Below are positions 46,913 to 57,330 of a DNA stretch of 64,000 nucleotides, one piece after another; position 1 is the stretch's first letter; each line of letters starts with the position of its first letter. The notes under the pieces are model-generated. The model made no database searches, was not told where the DNA came from, and saw only the letters and a program-made list of their open reading frames with translations. This DNA comes from an uncultured virus (IMG/VR IMGVR_UViG_3300006147_000010) (taxonomy: Duplodnaviria > Heunggongvirae > Uroviricota > Caudoviricetes), in IMG/VR virus record IMGVR_UViG_3300006147_000010, positions 1 through 64,000 of that record; one strand, 5' to 3'. The translations under genes were made by a program, and so were the position numbers.

Positions 46913-47935
46913 ATGGGAAGAAAGACGACTCGGAGTATGGCTGCTACGCCTGAGAAGCTGGCAGAGGTTAACCCAGAGAACATGCGGCTTAAGAAAGAAT
47001 TTCTTGGCTACCTGAAATCTCTGAGCCGATCCAGCGAGACAATCAAGGTCTATGACTCCGACCTCAACATTTTCTTCTGCTGGGCGGTGGACAATGCCGC
47101 TAACAAGTTCTTCGTGGATGTGAGCAAGAGAGACATCGTGGCGTTCCAGAACTACATGCTGGAAGCCGGCTGCTCCGCTGCAAGGGTGCGGCACCTGAAA
47201 GCCGCGCTGTCATCTCTGTCCAACTATATCGAGAACATTCTCGATGACGAGTTCCCGAACTTCCGGCCCATCATCCGTAAGATCGAGAACCCAGCCAATG
47301 AGGCGGTGCGTGAGAAAACCGTACTCACCAAAGAGCAGGTTCAGTCCTGCCTGGATCATCTGGTCGAGCATAAAAAATTCAAACAGGCGTGCTTCTTTGC
47401 TTTGGCTGCCTACTCTGGCAGACGCAAGGCGGAGCTTGCACGCTTCAAGGTAACGTACTTCGACGACGCCAATATTATTTGCGGGTCGCTCTATAAGACG
47501 CCTGAGAAAATCAGGACAAAGGGTCATGGGAGAAACGGCAAGATGCTGACCTGCTATACGCTGTCCAAGCCGTTCAAGCCCTATTTCGATCTGTGGATGG
47601 AGGAAAGGAAGCGCCTCGGTATCGAGAGCGAATGGCTGTTCCCAGATGTGCATGACACTACAAAGCCTATCGGGGTATCAACAATGAACAGCTACGCAAA
47701 CAGCTTCTCCCGGATCATGGGCGTTCCATTCTACATGCACGCCCTCCGACACTTCATGACATCTGAACTGGCGAGAGCTAACCTGCCTGACTCCGCAATC
47801 CAGATGCTGATCGGATGGGATAGCGCAGATATGGTTGGCGTGTATAAGGACATTGACGCTGACGAGGAGTTCAGCAAGTATTTCAAAGACGGTGAGATCG
47901 TAGCGCAGAAGGCTACGAGTATTGAAGACCTATAG
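46913..47935 (+). CDS. Tyrosine recombinase with SAM-like N-terminal domain
   Basis: SGRRKAE, HALRH, IGW (W at the H/W position), VGVY. Confidence 0.88.
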   Translation: MGRKTTRSMAATPEKLAEVNPENMRLKKEFLGYLKSLSRSSETIKVYDSDLNIFFCWAVDNAANKFFVDVSKRDIVAFQNYMLEAGCSAARVRHLKAALSSLSNYIENILDDEFPNFRPIIRKIENPANEAVREKTVLTKEQVQSCLDHLVEHKKFKQACFFALAAYSGRRKAELARFKVTYFDDANIICGSLYKTPEKIRTKGHGRNGKMLTCYTLSKPFKPYFDLWMEERKRLGIESEWLFPDVHDTTKPIGVSTMNSYANSFSRIMGVPFYMHALRHFMTSELARANLPDSAIQMLIGWDSADMVGVYKDIDADEEFSKYFKDGEIVAQKATSIEDL

Positions 47936-49759: not shown

Positions 49760-50116
49760 ATGGAACACTATATGCAGCTTATTGTTTCTATCCTCGCAGG
49801 TCTGGCGACCGCTATTCCTCTGGCTATCAAGCTGGTGGAGTATGTCCGTAAGGCCGTGAAGGAAAAGAATTGGCCAGAGGTTGTAAGCCTTGTTATCGAA
49901 CTGATGTCAGAGGTTGAGGGTAAGATGGAAGTCGGGGCGGATAAGAAAACGTACGTCCTGGCGGTGTTGAAAGCCTCTGCTGATACTATCGACTATGACC
50001 TGGATGAAAACGATTATAAGAAAATCGGGGATCTTATCGACAGTATGTGCGACATGAGTAAAGTTCTGAATGCGAACAAGTCTGCTGCCGCTAACGGAAA
50101 GAAGGAGACAATGTAA
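49760..50116 (+). CDS. Putative holin (LL-H-like)
   Basis: N-terminal TM helix; GADKK.YV motif. Confidence 0.65.
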   Translation: MEHYMQLIVSILAGLATAIPLAIKLVEYVRKAVKEKNWPEVVSLVIELMSEVEGKMEVGADKKTYVLAVLKASADTIDYDLDENDYKKIGDLIDSMCDMSKVLNANKSAAANGKKETM

Positions 50117-50135
50117 CTTTCAGGAGGTATGCAAC

Positions 50136-50588
50136 ATGAATCTCGGAGAAATCGCCGGGTGGAGTGGGGGTGCATTGCTCTTGCTCCTCACGTTTGTCCA
50201 GATTGCACCAATCAAGATTAACCCGTGGTCTGCTATCGTGCAGAGCATCGGGAAGGCACTCAATGGGGATGTGCTAAAGAAGCTGGATGTTCTTGAGGAA
50301 GGCCAGTTAGAAACCAGGAAGCGTTTGGATAAACATATCCGGATCGACGATGATCGCAATGCAGATACACATCGTTCCCGGATCTTACATTTCAACACGG
50401 AACTGCTCCGTGGTAATAAGCACACGCGGGAAGACTTTATCGAAGCTCTTGCGGAGATTGACTTTTACGAACGATACTGTCGGGAACATCCAGACTATGA
50501 GAACAACCGCGCAGTTCTCGCCATCGAGAACATAGAACGTGTGTATAAGAAACTTATGGAGAACGGCGGGTTCTTGCAAGAGACCTAA
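50136..50588 (+). CDS. Membrane-anchored lysis-cassette protein
   Basis: N-terminal TM, IAPIKINPWS motif; start re-called to ATG 50136. Confidence 0.65.
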   Translation: MNLGEIAGWSGGALLLLLTFVQIAPIKINPWSAIVQSIGKALNGDVLKKLDVLEEGQLETRKRLDKHIRIDDDRNADTHRSRILHFNTELLRGNKHTREDFIEALAEIDFYERYCREHPDYENNRAVLAIENIERVYKKLMENGGFLQET

Positions 50589-50592
50589 AATT

Positions 50593-50629
50593 TGGGGGTC
50601 ACCTTTTACGAGGTGGCTCCCATTTTTTT
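50593..50629 (+). terminator. Terminator of the late/lysis operon
   Basis: TGGGGGTCACCTT/GAGGTGGCTCCCA then T7. Confidence 0.85.
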
Positions 50630-50632
50630 GCG

Positions 50633-50671
50633 AAAAAAATAAGGCAGGACTGAATGACTCAGCCTGCCTTA
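50633..50671 (-). terminator. Terminator for leftward (int/attP) transcription
   Basis: On the - strand TAAGGCAGGCTGA/TCAGTCCTGCCTTA then a T-run. Confidence 0.8.
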
Positions 50672-50780
50672 CTCTGGTTGCCTACTTATAACAGCGCTCC
50701 ATGCACTGGAACGATCTTATAAATGGGCACAACTATGTAATCACTCATGCCTCTGATGAGTGACCCAAATCTGTGTTGGT

Positions 50781-50801
50781 GTTGTATGAGACTCTCCCCT
50801 C
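50781..50801. repeat. 21-bp inverted repeat partner of the integrase leader (52280-52300)
   Basis: GTTGTATGAGACTCTCCCCTC vs reverse complement of 52280-52300 GTTGTATGAGACTCTTCCCTC, 20/21 identical. Confidence 0.95.
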
Positions 50802-50815
50802 TGGACGACACAAAG

Positions 50816-51062
50816 TTGACACAGTTTTTGACACAGATTTGCATGGAATTATGGGGAGCTTTGTGGATTTACATATCTGAAATGTTTTGAAAAACGAGAT
50901 ATGTTGGGCTTTATTGAGCTATATGTGGGTATGAAAAGTTCGGAAGTCCCACGATGCCAAGTTTCATAGTTAACTTCAGCTCCTTCAAAAGTCCTGATTT
51001 TTCAAGGGGTTCGGGGTTCTGTCATTCGGTGTTGACACAGAATTGACACAGTTTTGACACAG
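50816..51062. other. attP: ychF-like core flanked by five TTGACACAG arm-type sites
   Basis: TTGACACAG at 50816, 50828, 51032, 51043, 51054; core 50938-50967 between the clusters; adjoins the integrase stop. Confidence 0.85.
50938..50985 (-). pseudogene. ychF: Replacement 5' fragment of host ychF (RBS + MKLGIVGLPN)
   Basis: - strand AAGGAG..ATG AAA CTT GGC ATC GTG GGA CTT CCG AAC; YchF begins MKLGIVGLPNVGKST; similarity stops after Asn10. Confidence 0.85.
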
Positions 51063-51064
51063 TT

Positions 51065-52255
51065 TCATAGTGAGACCGTCTGTCTGTGCTGCTCGAACTG
51101 CCTGACCCCGGCTGCCAAAGACTCGTCTGTGACATGGACGTATCTGTCCATGGTGGTCTTGATGCTGGCATGTCCCAAAAGTTTTTGAAGGGTCTTGGGC
51201 TGCATACCAGACTCGATGCAGCGCGTGGCATAGGTGTGCCTGAGCGCGTGCATACAGAACCGTGCGATACCGTTTTCATCACAGACTTTATAGATGTGCG
51301 TGTCGTAGCTGCTGTTCTTTGTCGGCATCCCTGTGCGGAAGTTCAAAAACACCAGCTCCGCCATAGCAAACTCTCTCTCGTCGCCTGTGCGCCGGTCGAT
51401 GTACGTCAGCCGTTCTGACAGGGACGGAGACTGCTTGCGAAATTCTTTTGTGGCTTGGACGGCTCTTAGGATGTCATAGGCTCGATCTGTCATCGGAAGT
51501 GTGCGGTAGCTTGCTACGGTCTTGGGCGGCCCAGCTCTCCATTGCCCCTGCTTGTGACGGTACTCCAGCGTCTTGTTGACTGTGAGCGTGCGCTTCTCCC
51601 AGTCGATTGCGTCCCACGTCAGACCAATCATCTCACCGGTACGGAGTCCAGTCTCCAGAACGAGAGCATACTGGAAGTAGTTGTGGGTACTCCTGCACGC
51701 CTCCAGGAACCTGTCCTGTTCTTCCACAGTCAGGAAGTGAATGTCGTCTACGGCGCGGACAGGCTTCGTATAACGTACCCCGTCCATAGGATGCGCACTG
51801 ATCATCCCATTCATCTTTGCCGCCTTGAACATAGACCCCATAGCGATGTACGTCTGACGGATAGTTGAACCTGCATAATCGGCTTCCATCCGGTTGAGTA
51901 TCATCTTACAATGCATGGGTTTGACATCCGATAGCTTCATTGCGCCGATGACTTCCTTGATGTTGTGACAGTACCGTTCCCTATAGTTCCGCTTTGTGTT
52001 TGGTGACAGACCGCCGAGGAGTTGGTCATGCCAAAACGAGAACCACTCGTCTACCGTCATGCTGCTTGAGACAACGGGCGTCCCATGTTTCTCCTTATAC
52101 TTAACTTCCTCTAACCAGTTGCGAGCGTCTGGGAGGGAGCGGAAGTATTTCTCAAACAGTCCACCCGTCTTGCTCTCGTACCTTACATAATAGCGCCCAT
52201 CCTTTCTCTGACATATTCCTTTGCCACATTCTTTGCCTTTAAGGTTTTTGCCCAT
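51065..52255 (-). CDS. int: Phage integrase (tyrosine, with arm-binding domain)
   Basis: GICQRKDGRY arm domain; TGLRTGE, HALRH, LGH, TMDRY. Confidence 0.95.
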   Translation of the reverse strand: MGKNLKGKECGKGICQRKDGRYYVRYESKTGGLFEKYFRSLPDARNWLEEVKYKEKHGTPVVSSSMTVDEWFSFWHDQLLGGLSPNTKRNYRERYCHNIKEVIGAMKLSDVKPMHCKMILNRMEADYAGSTIRQTYIAMGSMFKAAKMNGMISAHPMDGVRYTKPVRAVDDIHFLTVEEQDRFLEACRSTHNYFQYALVLETGLRTGEMIGLTWDAIDWEKRTLTVNKTLEYRHKQGQWRAGPPKTVASYRTLPMTDRAYDILRAVQATKEFRKQSPSLSERLTYIDRRTGDEREFAMAELVFLNFRTGMPTKNSSYDTHIYKVCDENGIARFCMHALRHTYATRCIESGMQPKTLQKLLGHASIKTTMDRYVHVTDESLAAGVRQFEQHRQTVSL

Positions 52256-52307
52256 TTTAGAAACTCCTTCCCGGCGAACGAGGGAAGAGTCTCATACAAC
52301 GAATTGT

Positions 52308-52336
52308 ATTGTAGCATATCGGACATTTTTTCTCAA
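52308..52336 (-). promoter_or_regulatory. SigA promoter of int
   Basis: TTGAGA, 17 bp, TACAAT with extended TG. Confidence 0.75.
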
Positions 52337-52339
52337 GAG

Positions 52340-52543
52340 TCAAATCATCAACTTATCACTGATGAATTGCTCAAACTCCCTCCTCTTCACCAGTTTTTTC
52401 GTGCCAACAAATAGGACGAACGGGCATTCAGGTTTCTTCAACATGCTGTCGATCTTGTTGATCCCTATGTTGCTGTACTCTGATGCTTCGCGGATCGTCA
52501 ACGCTAACTTGAGATTGATTGGCACCTTCTCTTCATGATCCAT
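52340..52543 (-). CDS. xis: Excisionase (MerR-like HTH)
   Basis: KLALTIREASEYSNIGINK...CPFVLFVG.KKLVKR..FE; upstream of int. Confidence 0.88.
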   Translation of the reverse strand: MDHEEKVPINLKLALTIREASEYSNIGINKIDSMLKKPECPFVLFVGTKKLVKRREFEQFISDKLMI

Positions 52544-52615: not shown

Positions 52616-53125
52616 TCAACGGCCCGTAGAGCCCATACCGCCGTCCCTGACGGCCTTTGCGTCGTCGTTGTATGTAATCCCATACGGGATAAAGATCGCC
52701 TGCATAAAGCCATCTCCGGCGTTTACACACAGGGTTTTGTTCTCCCGTGTGTCGTTGGTAATCTTGATGAAGATGTGACCCTCATTCGAGGAGCCGTAGT
52801 AATCTTCATCGATCACGCCCACCGTGTTGTCAAGTTGAATGCGGTACTTGAACCCCATGCCGCTGCGCGGGAGGGCGGCGAGCCACCACCCGGAATCGAT
52901 CTTCACACGGATACCTGTCGGCACCTTGATCGTACAGCCCGGCGCCAAGTCAAACCTGATTGGTGACTTGAAGTCGTATCCAGCCGACCCTGACGTTGCC
53001 CTTGTCGGCAGCTCAATGCCGTCGTACAAATCACGGATAACACTGTCATCCATGCTGAAGCAGTCTTTGATGGCGGTATAGAACTGCTCATAGCTTACCT
53101 TTTCAAACTTACCTACTCGCTCCAT
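52616..53125 (-). CDS. dut: dUTPase (trimeric)
   Basis: SAGYDF, PRSG, GVIDEDY, RDGGMGSTG. Confidence 0.95.
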   Translation of the reverse strand: MERVGKFEKVSYEQFYTAIKDCFSMDDSVIRDLYDGIELPTRATSGSAGYDFKSPIRFDLAPGCTIKVPTGIRVKIDSGWWLAALPRSGMGFKYRIQLDNTVGVIDEDYYGSSNEGHIFIKITNDTRENKTLCVNAGDGFMQAIFIPYGITYNDDAKAVRDGGMGSTGR

Positions 53126-53483
53126 TGTCTTCCTCCATGTATTCTATGTGTGCCGTGCTAAGGCGAAACACTGTATCGTGAGGGAGTTGCTTCACATACA
53201 GTATGCGATGGAACCTGTGCCCTCTGATATTGTTAATGGACGCGCTTATGAACTTGATATAGCTCCCATTATTGAACGTGATGAACTGGTCATTCGACCT
53301 GTTGATATGCCCGTCAACAGCGGAGAGCATTTCGATATCTTCTTTGATCAGGTCGTATGCTTCTGCGCAGGCACACTTCGCGTCCGCGATAGTACGTGTG
53401 ACTATACCAACATGGTATCCTGGTTTGTTCACACACGTCCTGATTGCCTTGAGCAAATCAAGGAAGCTGTATTCCGCTATCAT
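53109..53483 (-). CDS. Stand-alone terminase-ATPase-like fragment lacking Walker A/B
   Basis: ITFNNGSYIKFISASINNIRGHR aligns with TerL IVFLNGSYIKVVTASDSSRGNR in this window. Confidence 0.7.
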   Translation of the reverse strand: MIAEYSFLDLLKAIRTCVNKPGYHVGIVTRTIADAKCACAEAYDLIKEDIEMLSAVDGHINRSNDQFITFNNGSYIKFISASINNIRGHRFHRILYVKQLPHDTVFRLSTAHIEYMEEDNGASR

Positions 53484-53755
53484 TTATCCATCATCTTCTT
53501 GATGACATGGTAGATGACATTGCCAAGGAGCGCGCCGGCTGTAGCAGTCAGGAGCGTTTCCAGCGGAGACACCACGATGACGCTATCCAGGTCAACACCA
53601 TACTCCACACCGTCTTCACCCTCATTGTATACAGTAGTGGTACAGGGCGGCGTCGGGTCACTAAAGGAAGTGACAGAGTGGATCTTTGTCACCCTGCCGT
53701 TCTCGTTGTATTGGTACTCAGTATCCGTGGTAGTTGTCGGTTGTACGATACACAT
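53480..53755 (-). CDS. Hypothetical protein with C-terminal hydrophobic helix
   Basis: RBS AAGGAG before ATG 53755. Confidence 0.6.
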   Translation of the reverse strand: MCIVQPTTTTDTEYQYNENGRVTKIHSVTSFSDPTPPCTTTVYNEGEDGVEYGVDLDSVIVVSPLETLLTATAGALLGNVIYHVIKKMMDK

Positions 53756-53771
53756 ATCAGTTCTCCTTTTT

Positions 53772-54320
53772 TTACACAATCCCATAGCTCCCGTATGGGC
53801 ATTTTACTCTTCTCAGGATGTCGCTCGCGAGAGTGTCATAATCCTCTTTGCAGCCATCGTATTGCGCGCAAACAACACCATGGTCGTCCAGGAACGCGCG
53901 CATTACGTTGGACAGTTCGTCACTCTCGGCTTCAGTCTGGAACCGGCCAGACGGGTTGTAGGGCTTTACCCTATTGATGAAAACATTCATGGAGTCGTAG
54001 GAGTTGAACACCTTCATGATCAGCGCGTCGAACTCCTTGCCAAGAACTTCATCATTTGCGTAGAAACTTGACAGCAGAATTGGAGAGTCGGTGATGACCA
54101 CATCCACTTTACCTTGGACACGGCTGATGCGGAAATACTGCTTACCGAAGATATATGCTTGGTTTTGGAATACGGCCTTACTTTCCTCCCACACTTTGTC
54201 CTTTGCGAACTCAGTTACCAGTTCTGCATTGATGCCGGCCATTTTGAGCTTGGAGAATATGTAGGCCGCGCCGGTTGATTTGCCGGCGCCGGGAGCGCCA
54301 AAAAGATTTACAACAAGCAT
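53772..54320 (-). CDS. NadR-like/AAA_28 P-loop kinase
   Basis: GAPGAGKST, EFAKD, ITDSP. Confidence 0.8.
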   Translation of the reverse strand: MLVVNLFGAPGAGKSTGAAYIFSKLKMAGINAELVTEFAKDKVWEESKAVFQNQAYIFGKQYFRISRVQGKVDVVITDSPILLSSFYANDEVLGKEFDALIMKVFNSYDSMNVFINRVKPYNPSGRFQTEAESDELSNVMRAFLDDHGVVCAQYDGCKEDYDTLASDILRRVKCPYGSYGIV

Positions 54321-54337
54321 TTGTCTGCCCTCTTTCT

Positions 54338-54520
54338 TCATTTCGTTTTCACATACAGCCCACAGTGGCATGTGCCACTTTCCATCTCACGGAACTCTCT
54401 GCACATACACTTGGTGTCATCTGTTCTCACCAAAGAGCATGGGCAGTATCCTCCGTTTTCCTTGAGCTGTTTACGAATCTCCTCCACAAGTTTGCTGTCT
54501 GTGTTAACTCTGATACTCAT
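54338..54520 (-). CDS. Ferredoxin-thioredoxin reductase catalytic-subunit-like protein
   Basis: GYCPC...CMC...CHCGLY motif set. Confidence 0.8.
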   Translation of the reverse strand: MSIRVNTDSKLVEEIRKQLKENGGYCPCSLVRTDDTKCMCREFREMESGTCHCGLYVKTK

Positions 54521-54528
54521 GGCAATCC

Positions 54529-54864
54529 TCACTCTTTCCCGTAATTTTCTCCTTCAGCCGCAGCCTTCTCCATCTCGTTGCGAAGTTTGTCACGGTAATA
54601 CTGATGGATGCCCATCTCTCCGTATCTCTCTGCTTCGATATCGACCCACGATTTTGCTGTCAGATGTATGATTCCCTTTTTCTCCACGTTGTCCATATAG
54701 GAAGACGCGATGATATACGGGTAGTACGGTACGCAATCCGCACGGCAACGGAGCTCAAGCGGTTCGCGGCTGTCGCCTACATACACCTTGCTGTTTAAGA
54801 TACAGTCAAGACCGAAGATATCAATCTCATCGAAGAAGTCACACTTACCTGAGAACCCGCTCAT
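54529..54864 (-). CDS. Hypothetical protein
   Basis: ORF in operon, MSGFSGKCDF. Confidence 0.65.
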   Translation of the reverse strand: MSGFSGKCDFFDEIDIFGLDCILNSKVYVGDSREPLELRCRADCVPYYPYIIASSYMDNVEKKGIIHLTAKSWVDIEAERYGEMGIHQYYRDKLRNEMEKAAAEGENYGKE

Positions 54865-54885
54865 GATTTTCACCCCTTATATTCG

Positions 54886-55371
54886 TTATGAAATTCGCTC
54901 TGCGTACTGGTTGTCACTGGCGAGAGTTACCCCCAGTATCTCGTCATATCTGCTTTGCCTGTTTGGGATGTAACGACCAAACTTGATGATGATATTATTG
55001 AACCCCTTGAGAACATCGAGCGCGTCTTTGATCTCGTCAGGGTAGTATCCGGTGTAAATCACCACGTCGTCGTCACACATAAACTCTGTGCGTAGCAGAT
55101 ATATGAAATGCTGAAGTTCCTCGAATTGCTCGAAAGGTTCCAACCCTCCAAATATGACTGCGTGTGTTACCGGGTTATTGATGTACCGTTTGCACAGGTC
55201 ACGATCGTCTAAAAAGACGGGGGCGCGTGAGCGCCACCCGTCATTTTGACATACCGACAGAGGGATACCGGCTTCGATACAGCACTTCCCTCCGCAGGAG
55301 ATTGTGCCGATAAACATAGCCGGGGTGTGGTAATCATCAAACCTTTCGTCGATGACTGTCTTCATCCTCAT
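54886..55371 (-). CDS. nrdG: Anaerobic RNR activase (radical SAM)
   Basis: CGGKC..CQN, FGGLEP, IYTGY, IKFGRY, LASDNQ. Confidence 0.85.
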   Translation of the reverse strand: MRMKTVIDERFDDYHTPAMFIGTISCGGKCCIEAGIPLSVCQNDGWRSRAPVFLDDRDLCKRYINNPVTHAVIFGGLEPFEQFEELQHFIYLLRTEFMCDDDVVIYTGYYPDEIKDALDVLKGFNNIIIKFGRYIPNRQSRYDEILGVTLASDNQYAERIS

Positions 55372-57122
55372 TAGAGCTGCACCCTATCTGAGAACTCAGC
55401 CTTCTTCCCGCGATTGAAGTTGTCCACATCGCGGAGATAGCCTGTGATACGCTGGTACTTTCTGAGCCGCTTCTTGCAGTACGGGCATTTGTCAACCCTC
55501 TCCGCAATATAGCCGTGGTCGTCGCAGTACCGTGAGATGGGGGACAGACTCATGTACGGAACCTTATAATTCTCGCACATCGCCTTCACGATAGCCTTCG
55601 CCTGTTCACCGCTGATTGCACCGTTCTCCCAGATGTGGATGACAGTGCCGCCGGTGAACTGAGTCTGCAGTTCCTCCTGGTGCTTGAAGGTGCTATCGAT
55701 ACCCTCAATCAGTTTGACGGGGATGTGACAGCTATTGGTATAGTAGCAGTCGAGGCCGCTGCCCTGTGTGATGATGTCCGGGTAGAGCTTACGGTCAGCC
55801 AACGCGAAGCGGTAGCAGGTGGACTCAGCCGGCGTTGCTTCATAGTTGTAGAGGTGACCGGTTTCCTCCTGGTAGGCCAGCAGGCGGTTGCGAATGTGGT
55901 CGCCCACCTCGACACAGAACTGCTTGGCGTCAGGATCGAGGATGTTCTTGCCCATGAAGTTCTCACACATCTCGTTCATGCCACACACACCGATGGTGGA
56001 GAAGTGGTTATTGATGGTGCCAACATACTCCATGTACGCCGGGATCATATGCGTGTCGATGATCTCCGTCTGGAGCCACTGGCGCTTGATCTCAAGGCTG
56101 TCCCTTGCGATGTCAAGATACTTGTCCAGCTCCTTGAAGAACGACTCCTTGTTCCCCTTGTTCTCGTACCCGAGCCTTGGGAGATTCAGAGTCACGACGC
56201 CGATTGACCCAGTGGAGTCGCCGGCGCCAAACAGGCCACCGTTGCGGTGGCGCAGCTCAGACAGGTCAAGCCGCAGACGGCAGCACATAGAGCGCACGTC
56301 AGAGATATCCAGGTCGCTGTTGATGAAGTTCGCAAAGTACGGGGTGCCGTACTTGCCGGCCATCTCCCACAGCATTTCGTTGTTCGGGTTCTCCCAGTCG
56401 AAGCGCTCGTGAATGTTGTATGTCGGGATGGGGTAGGCGAACAGCTTCCCATCCGCGTCACCGTTCAGCATGATCTCGAAGAAGACACGGTTGAGCAGAT
56501 CCATCTCCTGCTGACATGATCCATACGTGAAGCTCTGGAGCTTGCCGCCCACGATGACATACTCGTCAAGCATGTCCCTTGGCGGGGTCAGGTCAAAGGT
56601 GATATTAGAAAACGCCGGCTCTGCGCCGGCGCGGCTGTTGGAGTTGATACTGAAAATGAAGTTCTGCATGGACTGCTTCACTTCATCGTATCCGATCTTG
56701 TCCGCCTTGATAAACGGGGCGAGCAGAGTATCGAACCCGTTCAGTGCAACGGCGCCCATGATCTCGTTCTGGAAGATGGTCACCAGATTTGCAATCTGAT
56801 TGAGTACGGAGTCGAAGTGCTTCGCCGGCGCTGAGGTCGGAACGCTCGGGATGTGCCGCACACCCTTGAGCAGGATATCCTTGAGGGAGTAACCCACACA
56901 ATAGAGCGTCAGGCCGCCCAGGTCATGAATGTGGATATACCCATCGACATATGCCTGCGCGATGTATTCGGGGTACACCTCACGAAGCCAGTAGTCCTTA
57001 CTAACCTCTGAGCCGATGTACTTGTTCATCGCGCCGAAGCTGTATGGTGCGTTGGAGTTTTCCTTAACTCTCCAGTCCTTCTTCTCCAGATAGGACTCAA
57101 CAATGTTCTTGCTACTTTTCAT
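55371..57122 (-). CDS. nrdD: Class III ribonucleoside-triphosphate reductase, no ATP cone
   Basis: IHIHDL, YPIPTY, SMCCRL, EATPAES, RITGYLR glycyl-radical motif; start re-called to ATG 57122. Confidence 0.95.
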   Translation of the reverse strand: MKSSKNIVESYLEKKDWRVKENSNAPYSFGAMNKYIGSEVSKDYWLREVYPEYIAQAYVDGYIHIHDLGGLTLYCVGYSLKDILLKGVRHIPSVPTSAPAKHFDSVLNQIANLVTIFQNEIMGAVALNGFDTLLAPFIKADKIGYDEVKQSMQNFIFSINSNSRAGAEPAFSNITFDLTPPRDMLDEYVIVGGKLQSFTYGSCQQEMDLLNRVFFEIMLNGDADGKLFAYPIPTYNIHERFDWENPNNEMLWEMAGKYGTPYFANFINSDLDISDVRSMCCRLRLDLSELRHRNGGLFGAGDSTGSIGVVTLNLPRLGYENKGNKESFFKELDKYLDIARDSLEIKRQWLQTEIIDTHMIPAYMEYVGTINNHFSTIGVCGMNEMCENFMGKNILDPDAKQFCVEVGDHIRNRLLAYQEETGHLYNYEATPAESTCYRFALADRKLYPDIITQGSGLDCYYTNSCHIPVKLIEGIDSTFKHQEELQTQFTGGTVIHIWENGAISGEQAKAIVKAMCENYKVPYMSLSPISRYCDDHGYIAERVDKCPYCKKRLRKYQRITGYLRDVDNFNRGKKAEFSDRVQL

Positions 57123-57330
57123 CTGATGCCTCCTTATATGTATTTGCCCAGTTGATTGCTGCGCCGCAATCATAAAGCTGCCCATCCACAGACAGCACCG
57201 GGACTTTTGTAATTCCAAGAGAGAGCATCTTTTCGACGGAGGTTTCCTCCGTGTATTGGATCTTCTTCTCGTCCAGCAATGCTTTGAGCGCCCTACAGTT
57301 TGGACACCCAGTGGTATACATCGTGACCAC
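57112..57330 (-). CDS. nrdH: Glutaredoxin-like NrdH redoxin
   Basis: CPNC active site, VPVL. Confidence 0.8.
   Translation of the reverse strand: MVTMYTTGCPNCRALKALLDEKKIQYTEETSVEKMLSLGITKVPVLSVDGQLYDCGAAINWANTYKEASDEK

Follow-up and report, generated by a model that had tools for sequence, protein, structure and literature searches.

How does a phage that integrates into the start of a conserved host gene, and that probably has to go on transcribing that gene, keep the same transcripts from yielding integrase once the prophage is in place? The question is raised by the integrase locus of an uncultured tailed gut phage (IMG/VR record IMGVR_UViG_3300006147_000010), analysed here in a window consisting of the first 64 kb of this linear, 78.7-kb virus record. 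Because integration cuts the host gene ychF from its own promoter, the element probably must keep transcribing through its integrase gene, int, for the sake of ychF, yet a prophage has no need for the integrase (Int). A silencing hairpin, together with an opener carried on the same RNA solely before integration, would resolve this conflict without a protein regulator. A sequence-only reading of the window had proposed an arrangement of this kind, in which a sequence lying across the recombination core from the int leader would pair with that leader, free its Shine-Dalgarno (SD) sequence and activate Int translation in the excised circle. The present analysis puts at about even odds (roughly 0.5) that this sequence, called copy 2 below, is an RNA element that pairs with the 5' end of the int mRNA and couples Int translation to the state of the attachment (att) site. 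The features of the leader side, and copy 2, are as follows.

52340..52543, minus strand: xis, a Tn916-type excisionase of 67 aa (Pfam PF09035, E 2.3e-30; PHROG excisionase)
52308..52336, minus strand: Pint, a predicted sigma-70-type promoter (TTGAGA, a 17-nt spacer and TACAAT with an upstream TG; 10/12 consensus positions)
52280..52300, minus strand: copy 1, the first 21 nt of the predicted int mRNA, made up of a 7-nt free 5' end and the strand pairing with the SD (anti-SD strand); from repeat search and folding
52260..52293, minus strand: leader hairpin of 12 pairs and one bulge, burying the SD AAGGAG (52264-52269)
51065..52255, minus strand: int, a tyrosine integrase of 396 aa (Pfam PF00589, E 5e-28, and PF14659; PHROG 1)
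50781..50801, minus strand: copy 2, the complement of copy 1 (20 Watson-Crick pairs and one G-U), proposed anti-anti-SD element

The two copies (52280-52300 and 50781-50801) agreed at 20 of 21 positions. With up to three mismatches allowed, the 21-mer had exactly two matches, whether the 64-kb window or the full 78.7-kb record was searched, and two matches were obtained in none of 100 shuffles. The inverted repeat across the phage attachment site that had been read from the sequence was therefore borne out, with its copy 2 coordinates unchanged and copy 1 corrected to 52280-52300; its statement that the single mismatch is a U-G pair in minus-strand RNA also held. Self-folding of the copy 2 region was no better than that of shuffled sequences (z -0.12), and a self-contained hairpin of the lambda sib kind was not found there. 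A second, weaker inverted repeat links window positions 50723-50740 and 52183-52200 (18 nt, 83%), with one arm within int codons 19-24; its spacing nearly equals that of the main repeat and may be chance.

Between the copies lies the phage attachment site, attP, bounded downstream by a terminator:

51032..51062, minus strand: P arm, three direct CTGTGTCAA repeats, putative arm-type Int sites; the repeats are lineage-specific and occupy the same place in relatives
50938..50967, minus strand: attP core, identical to the first 30 nt of ychF (MKLGIVGLPN), defined by the overlap of two junction pieces of DNA contig X1
50807..50836, minus strand: P' arm, two exact CTGTGTCAA repeats and one degenerate repeat, recognised as sequence repeats
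50636..50675, minus strand: intrinsic terminator in int sense, a hairpin followed by U7 (-25.2 kcal/mol, z -5.7)

The core was defined by a mouse-gut DNA contig (X1) that spans the junctions at the two ends of an integrated relative. These junction pieces share 30 bp at 50938-50967, and the loose ends of the contig run into host ychF (VGKSTLFNAI...) on one side and into host upstream DNA on the other. Because the junctions overlap there, attP is intact in the window, and its core consists of the opening 30 nt of ychF; past these ten codons the window sequence diverges from the host gene. Reading downstream of int on the minus strand, the order is three CTGTGTCAA repeats, an SD with ten ychF codons, three further repeats, the 21-mer of copy 2 beginning 5 nt past the last P' arm repeat, and the terminator, whose T-run is located 138 nt past copy 2. 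Copy 2 thus lies beyond the core as seen from int, and at attL, the far junction of an integrated element, it stands at the far element end, where the order is host promoter or SD, core, P' arm, copy 2 and terminator. The window is a temperate phage in its non-integrated form, and after integration it is the phage element that provides the ribosome-binding site (RBS) and start codon of ychF. In relatives, ychF begins 60-100 nt past int with a phage-supplied SD, and a promoter scan of the window gave no strong minus-strand promoter between int and ychF, only one 9/12 match (51025-50997). Since the ychF start is close to int with no strong promoter between them, read-through from int is plausible.

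On the leader side, the Pint-like site stops 7 nt ahead of copy 1, and a -35 box, 17-nt spacer and -10 box occur at the equivalent place, between xis and int, in 12/12 lineages. Constancy of the xis-int adjacency was also probed by counting an Xis motif, which turned up in 127 of 219 loci; as the motif proved too strict, this count was set aside. The leader hairpin has a predicted stability of -15.4 kcal/mol (z -3.08), equalled in 1 of 200 shuffles. The int promoter, the SD-burying hairpin and the leftward terminator of the sequence-only reading were thus all recovered. Among 71 distinct int leaders, 58 had an unpaired probability below 0.2 in the SD window, compared to 1 of 71 controls in which the 5' part was shuffled; SD sequestration is, by these folding models, a trait of the whole integrase family. 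The stem sequences themselves vary from lineage to lineage. RNAalifold applied to a MAFFT alignment of 65 leaders returned no consensus structure, because the alignment was out of structural register, and it was replaced by per-sequence folding against shuffles. A search of Rfam 15 yielded no curated RNA family and two chance-level matches (E 0.46 and 0.95), far under the gathering thresholds. Leaders of the L036-L080 family, L079 and L016/L024/L033 (int 42-44% identity) are the exceptions to SD sequestration: in their predicted folds the pyrimidine strand is paired to the start codon and the opening codons (ATGGGNAAAGA) instead of the SD.

Recurrence of the pair was surveyed in integrase relatives gathered from viral contigs, reference genomes and metagenomes; among the matches listed, relatives were encoded by 476/600 reference-genome, 540/598 metagenome and 292/487 viral-contig candidate stretches. 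Copy 2 was scored by local alignment of each leader against the reverse complement of the 700 nt following int, with a cut at 22, and loci were classed as attP-like when the ychF start was truncated and as integrated when int was followed by an intact ychF. Scores of at least 22 were reached in 34 of 40 attP-like loci compared to 3 of 111 integrated loci. The six attP-like misses were accounted for by two tandem-lysogen hybrids (L218, L168), three loci without P' arm repeats (L134, L108, L224) and one misclassified locus (L197), while L036 passed the cut through an off-target alignment and its copy 2 was seen separately. Each hybrid combines int from one lineage with a downstream P' arm and copy 2 from a second, which in L218 are the window's own P' arm and 21-mer.

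Across 12 diverged lineages (int identity 39-80%), copy 2 complements the first 15-23 nt of its own leader in a sequence that is lineage-specific. Cognate pairs scored 30.1 on average and non-cognate pairs 16.1; the observed diagonal sum was reached by none of 100,000 permutations, and the cognate partner was the single best in 9 of 12 rows. Conservation and covariation of the pair, which the sequence-only reading had put forward as one check, were accordingly found in diverged relatives. Origin as a duplication relic was considered and rejected, as position and complementarity persist across int genes just 39-80% identical.

The far junction of integrated elements carried a cognate copy 2 in four genomes (L105/L189, L144/L178, L150, L092). 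An attL search of five genomes gave two clear cognate copies, a weak one for L100 and a non-cognate one for L120; no attL was found for L094 within the 38 kb searched. A degenerate ychF-start pattern revealed a second truncated start in 3 of 15 genomes, with a cognate copy 2 in L189 and L178 and without one in L170. In the records behind L005-L013, which are fragments (16-58% complete), a search for a second copy found the leader copy only. Integrases of the L034/L016 type (40-43% identity, with another target site) had no copy 2 within 0.8-2 kb downstream, in loci whose att state was not established. Junctions joining int and P arm to the P' arm and copy 2 of another lineage were seen at L218:2180-2700, L168:1713-2050 and L278:5387-5650, and indicate tandem lysogeny at ychF or module exchange.

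The complementarity is placed precisely with respect to the predicted transcript. It begins 4-7 nt past the -10 hexamer in 11 of 12 lineages, where the +1 is expected, and ends 22-28 nt ahead of the ATG, so that it would span the free 5' end and the anti-SD strand. At the other end, copy 2 sits 0-12 nt past the last P' arm repeat in relatives. None of nine attP-form lineages had a terminator-like site between the int stop and copy 2, and a strict rule identified an int-sense hairpin with T-run past copy 2 in 6 of 12 lineages; by eye, strong GC hairpins were visible in L221, L139 and L189 (the last paired with L105), with a T-rich tail in the first two and no such tail in L189. The first nucleotides of the transcript thus complement a site near its 3' terminator, both ends being predicted. 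These positions agree with the placement of the pair at the leader that had been proposed from the sequence.

On the favoured reading, the transcript of an infecting or excised circle would start at Pint, cross int and the whole of attP (P arm, 30-bp core and P' arm), take in copy 2 and stop at the terminator. Copy 2 would pair with the first ~20 nt of the int mRNA, that is, with the free 5' toehold and the anti-SD strand; entering the hairpin by the toehold, it would free the SD, and Int would be translated while attP is intact. A Pint transcript without copy 2 would fold the leader hairpin, hide the RBS and give little Int. Integration would shift copy 2 about one genome length away, behind the host ychF promoter, and the same Pint transcript would then continue into ychF, whose RBS and start codon are phage-supplied.

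Cofolding models were consistent with the opening step, in line with the folding check suggested by the sequence-only reading: cognate copy 2 displaced the SD strand in 7 of 10 lineages. Modelled SD accessibility rose from 0.17 to 0.40 in the window (WIN), from 0 to 0.38 in L012, from 0.13 to 0.75 in L014, from 0 to 0.93 in L020, from 0.05 to 0.63 in L142, from 0 to 0.82 in L221 and from 0 to 0.31 in L105, values that largely follow from the complementarity itself and are silent on kinetics.

Most relatives hold a third copy. The -35 box and spacer of their Pint contain a further complement of copy 1, covering the first 10-15 nt of the leader, and together with a U-run this would form a hairpin (-14 to -37 kcal/mol) whose loop holds the -10 box and which resembles an intrinsic terminator that would end xis transcripts. 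Models extended by 45 nt of upstream RNA had an open SD in L221 (0.85), L092 (0.81) and L120 (0.92). The window has no such hairpin at 52300-52345 (-6.7 kcal/mol) and its SD stayed at 0.17; because of this, Int translation from the window prophage may not occur at all unless copy 2 is supplied in trans or excision has taken place. These models suggest a three-partner switch in the relatives. Loci with a third copy just upstream of int include L221:430-500, L092, L120, L009, L122, L079 and L038.

A tentative extension, somewhat less likely than not, is that the first ~20 nt of the int mRNA act as a three-way RNA selector reading the topological state of the element. Paired with the SD, as in the Pint transcript of the prophage that would meanwhile drive ychF, they would keep Int off. 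Paired with the promoter-spacer copy, they would terminate xis transcripts, and RNA that reads through would have its SD open. Paired with the copy across the att crossover, they would turn Int on solely while attP is intact. If true, RNA by itself would be sensing the recombination state of the element, and such sensors would occur widely among phages that target ychF and among integrative elements of 8-15 kb in gut Clostridia.

Several observations tell against coupling of Int translation to att state through cis pairing. As copy 2 lies 1.5 kb away, the leader hairpin forms long before copy 2 is transcribed. The terminator is not specific support, because it is also needed to stop read-through from the host ychF promoter in lysogens. 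In a lysogen, copy 2 stands behind that promoter and before the terminator and may be a separate trans RNA, blurring the dependence on att state. Two of 14 lineages with both ends known fit poorly: the copy 2 of L120 (genome G016) suits the leader of another lineage and ranks its own leader 52nd of 97, and the match of L100 is weak (score 18), another leader type fitting better, with two toehold mismatches against its own leader that are both G-U in int-sense RNA. The model of L139 leaves the SD closed (0.00 to 0.01), and for the L038 and L079 families an open SD is predicted from the outset, the anti-SD strand pairing with the start codon region. Mismatches across lineages were G-U-compatible in int sense in seven cases, in the opposite sense in four and in neither in three. 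The argument that G-U pairing singles out RNA, drawn earlier from the one mismatch of the window, was consequently not upheld in general (7 vs 4); in the toehold part alone there were four int-sense G-U pairs against none in the opposite sense, too few to decide. Of the retro-activation proposed from the sequence, then, the conserved, covarying pair and the modelled opening stand, and the G-U argument falls away.

RNA-library (metatranscriptome) contigs of one study span int from 52266/52274 to 50948/50984, near the core, at higher depth than its neighbours, and none lies over 50111-50947, copy 2 included; as contig ends cannot show transcript ends, these contigs (X15, X16, X17) speak neither for nor against read-through, and the samples probably hold lysogens. 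The contigs ending at 52266 and 52274, from two runs of one study, stop inside the leader hairpin, and one continues into 22 unmatched letters; these ends could be processing, a reverse-transcription stop or an assembly artefact.

Whether the repeat is read as RNA or as DNA is the first division among the alternatives. The copies could be operators, with a phage repressor, Xis, Int or a host factor repressing Pint at +1 and binding beside the P' arm, and with a third site in the spacer of relatives. Copy 1 does cover +1 to +21 of Pint, a classic operator position, the inverted partner in the -35/spacer region of relatives makes a dyad bracketing the -10 box, copy 2 abuts the arm-type repeats at 0-12 nt, and a short GTNGYR motif is common to many leaders; Tn916 Xis is reported to bind close to the arm sites of Int at both ends. 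It is nevertheless unlikely that Xis reads both copies, because its helix-turn-helix and wing region is near-identical (73-95% overall) across lineages whose repeats differ strongly. The copies also differ by 1-2-nt indels in L142, L221, L038, L019 and L150 while both flanks remain lineage-specific and covary, which favours RNA pairing, since an RNA duplex tolerates bulges that a rigid protein site would not. The match of 15-23 nt always takes in the anti-SD strand, for which a protein site offers no reason, just two copies occur in the 78.7-kb record, and the dyad arms at the promoter (10-15 bp, 9-18 bp apart, followed by a U-run) resemble an RNA terminator. Judged from sequence comparison, these points, together with a match that begins at the predicted +1, speak for base pairing and make a protein operator improbable. 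The sequence-only reading had allowed for operators bound by Xis or a repressor; the Xis part of that alternative loses ground, and a fast-evolving protein would be the more credible candidate. Inversion of the segment holding int and attP, with the repeats as recombination sites, would also treat the copies as DNA. The repeats do bracket int and attP with Pint just outside, and a second recombinase gene lies nearby (46913-47935). Copy 1 was preceded by a promoter in every distinct attP-form locus examined and in all 12 lineages, though; no inverted arrangement was seen among attP-form loci, and contigs of one DNA-library and three RNA-library runs contained no strand-change joint at the repeats, a survey in which rare forms could be missed. 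Integrated prophages have the copies at opposite element ends, where inversion would flip the whole prophage, and this explanation is scarcely credible.

If the copies do pair as RNA, the pairing might act in trans: the lysogen's ychF promoter would make a small RNA, consisting of the truncated ychF start, the P' arm and copy 2, that opens the int leader. The Int supply of the prophage would then follow ychF promoter activity, Int and Xis both being needed for excision, and any action in cis would be an addition or a side effect. The attL order of host promoter or SD, core, P' arm, copy 2 and terminator suits such an RNA; the window is without a third-copy hairpin, its SD staying at 0.17, and yet has the longest copy 1-copy 2 duplex (21 nt); and the presence, covariation and +1 start of the pair in relatives fit trans action equally well. 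The tandem hybrids L218 and L168, in which copy 2 moves with the P' arm of its own phage, are predicted by cis and trans action alike. Under a constant supply of Int in trans, however, a sequestering hairpin would be near pointless, and we regard a mainly trans role as unlikely; the preference for cis is a prediction of the model. The direction of the effect is likewise predicted, and a negative, sib-like outcome was weighed, in which the 5'-3' duplex would be an RNase III site at which cleavage would strip the terminator hairpin or the leader from int mRNA, making the message less stable in lytic growth. Its geometry is that of lambda sib, an element across att from int that is lost on integration, and the 21-bp duplex of the window is near the minimal length of an RNase III substrate. 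The duplexes of most lineages, at 14-19 bp with bulges, would by contrast be poor substrates; the SD is already closed without copy 2, so that a negative element would repress a repressed message; and cleavage taking off the anti-SD strand would activate translation as well. This outcome appears very unlikely.

Cis pairing of copy 2 with the int leader, as favoured here, resembles several known systems in part. The timing of integrase expression is understood for few models, among them lambda CII/PI with sib, P2 and ICEclc Pcirc. Lambda sib is a self-contained hairpin that is cleaved by RNase III and acts negatively. Both sib and copy 2 are cis elements beyond att and downstream of int, present on the int transcript solely in the non-integrated state and detached by integration; copy 2 differs in being unstructured and complementary to the far 5' leader, and is modelled to open the RBS. 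No sequence or Rfam relation of copy 2 to sib was found. In hok, 5'-3' pairing keeps the mRNA inactive until its 3' end is processed, and with the hok fold-back and the long-range pairings of RNA phages the present pair would share an mRNA 5' end pairing near the 3' end (here over more than 1 kb) and deciding RBS availability. Unlike in hok, the pairing here is predicted to be activating and its presence to depend on DNA recombination. Integration also rewires phage gene expression in mycobacteriophage integration-dependent immunity and in Mx8 intP, where attP lies inside the gene. There the coding sequence is cut and the protein C-terminus changes, whereas the int reading frame here is intact and just its RNA partner is separated. 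With Tn916-type modules the locus shares the Xis and Int families (a PF09035 protein beside a PF00589 integrase) and the arm-type direct repeats in both arms; it differs in being phage-borne or on small integrative elements, in targeting the ychF 5' end and in replacing the gene start.

The circles of insertion sequences (IS) use junction promoters. No circular-form junction promoter was recognised at the present locus, where att follows int and Pint lies between xis and int in 12/12 lineages. According to an excerpt of its published description, ICEclc has a promoter, Pcirc, that drives the integrase in the circular form only (PMC5812530). As far as that excerpt goes, the two would share a rise in integrase expression in the circle and a signal from the other element end joined to int across att; Pcirc is upstream of int and transcriptional, whereas here int is upstream of att and the joined element is downstream. 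Because of that downstream position, copy 2 can act solely via RNA or as a DNA site. The literature search found no description of an RNA mechanism in which an integrase leader is opened by a sequence across attP, so that the novelty claimed by the sequence-only reading stands for RNA and is to be narrowed in general, positive coupling to att state being known at the transcriptional level from the excerpted account of Pcirc (PMC5812530). If confirmed, the pair would stand to sib as a positive to a negative control, and would exemplify in nature a toehold-type strand displacement that is linked to DNA recombination, in a ychF-targeting xis-int module that is common.

Upstream of the phage-supplied ychF start, window positions 50968-51030 (minus strand) and the same place in L139, L142, L221, L108 and L134 hold a conserved CC(A/C)TTGAAAA motif and AAGGAG, which could be a promoter -35 element or a regulatory hairpin for ychF expression in lysogens. 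As context only, integration of a pneumococcal prophage between dnaN and ychF reduces ychF expression, according to an excerpt of the report (PMC6375853).

The xis-int-attP module was also seen on small integrated elements of about 7.5, 13.5, 8 and 15 kb, which may be satellites or degraded prophages. They comprise X1 (window 49894-50967 and 50938-52506), G020:C1:724763-738252, G021:C22 at ~161.7-169.7 kb and G009:C6 at ~38.6-54.1 kb; the X1 element also has the window gene 50070-50588.

A search of a phage GenBank collection gave a single partial match (71% identity across 16% of the query), which was uninformative. The plus strand of the window carries phage tail and lysis genes converging on a minus-strand block that includes an NrdD-like reductase, a dUTPase, the Tn916-type Xis (52543-52340) and the tyrosine integrase (52255-51065). 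The second tyrosine recombinase (46913-47935, plus strand; 340 aa, PF00589, E 2e-14) is encoded between tail genes and endolysin and could serve in dimer resolution or as an inversion system. The nucleotide-metabolism block at 52616-57218 (minus strand) encodes the dUTPase, a thymidylate-kinase-like AAA protein, a 4Fe-4S activase-like protein and the anaerobic ribonucleotide reductase NrdD (E 1e-161).

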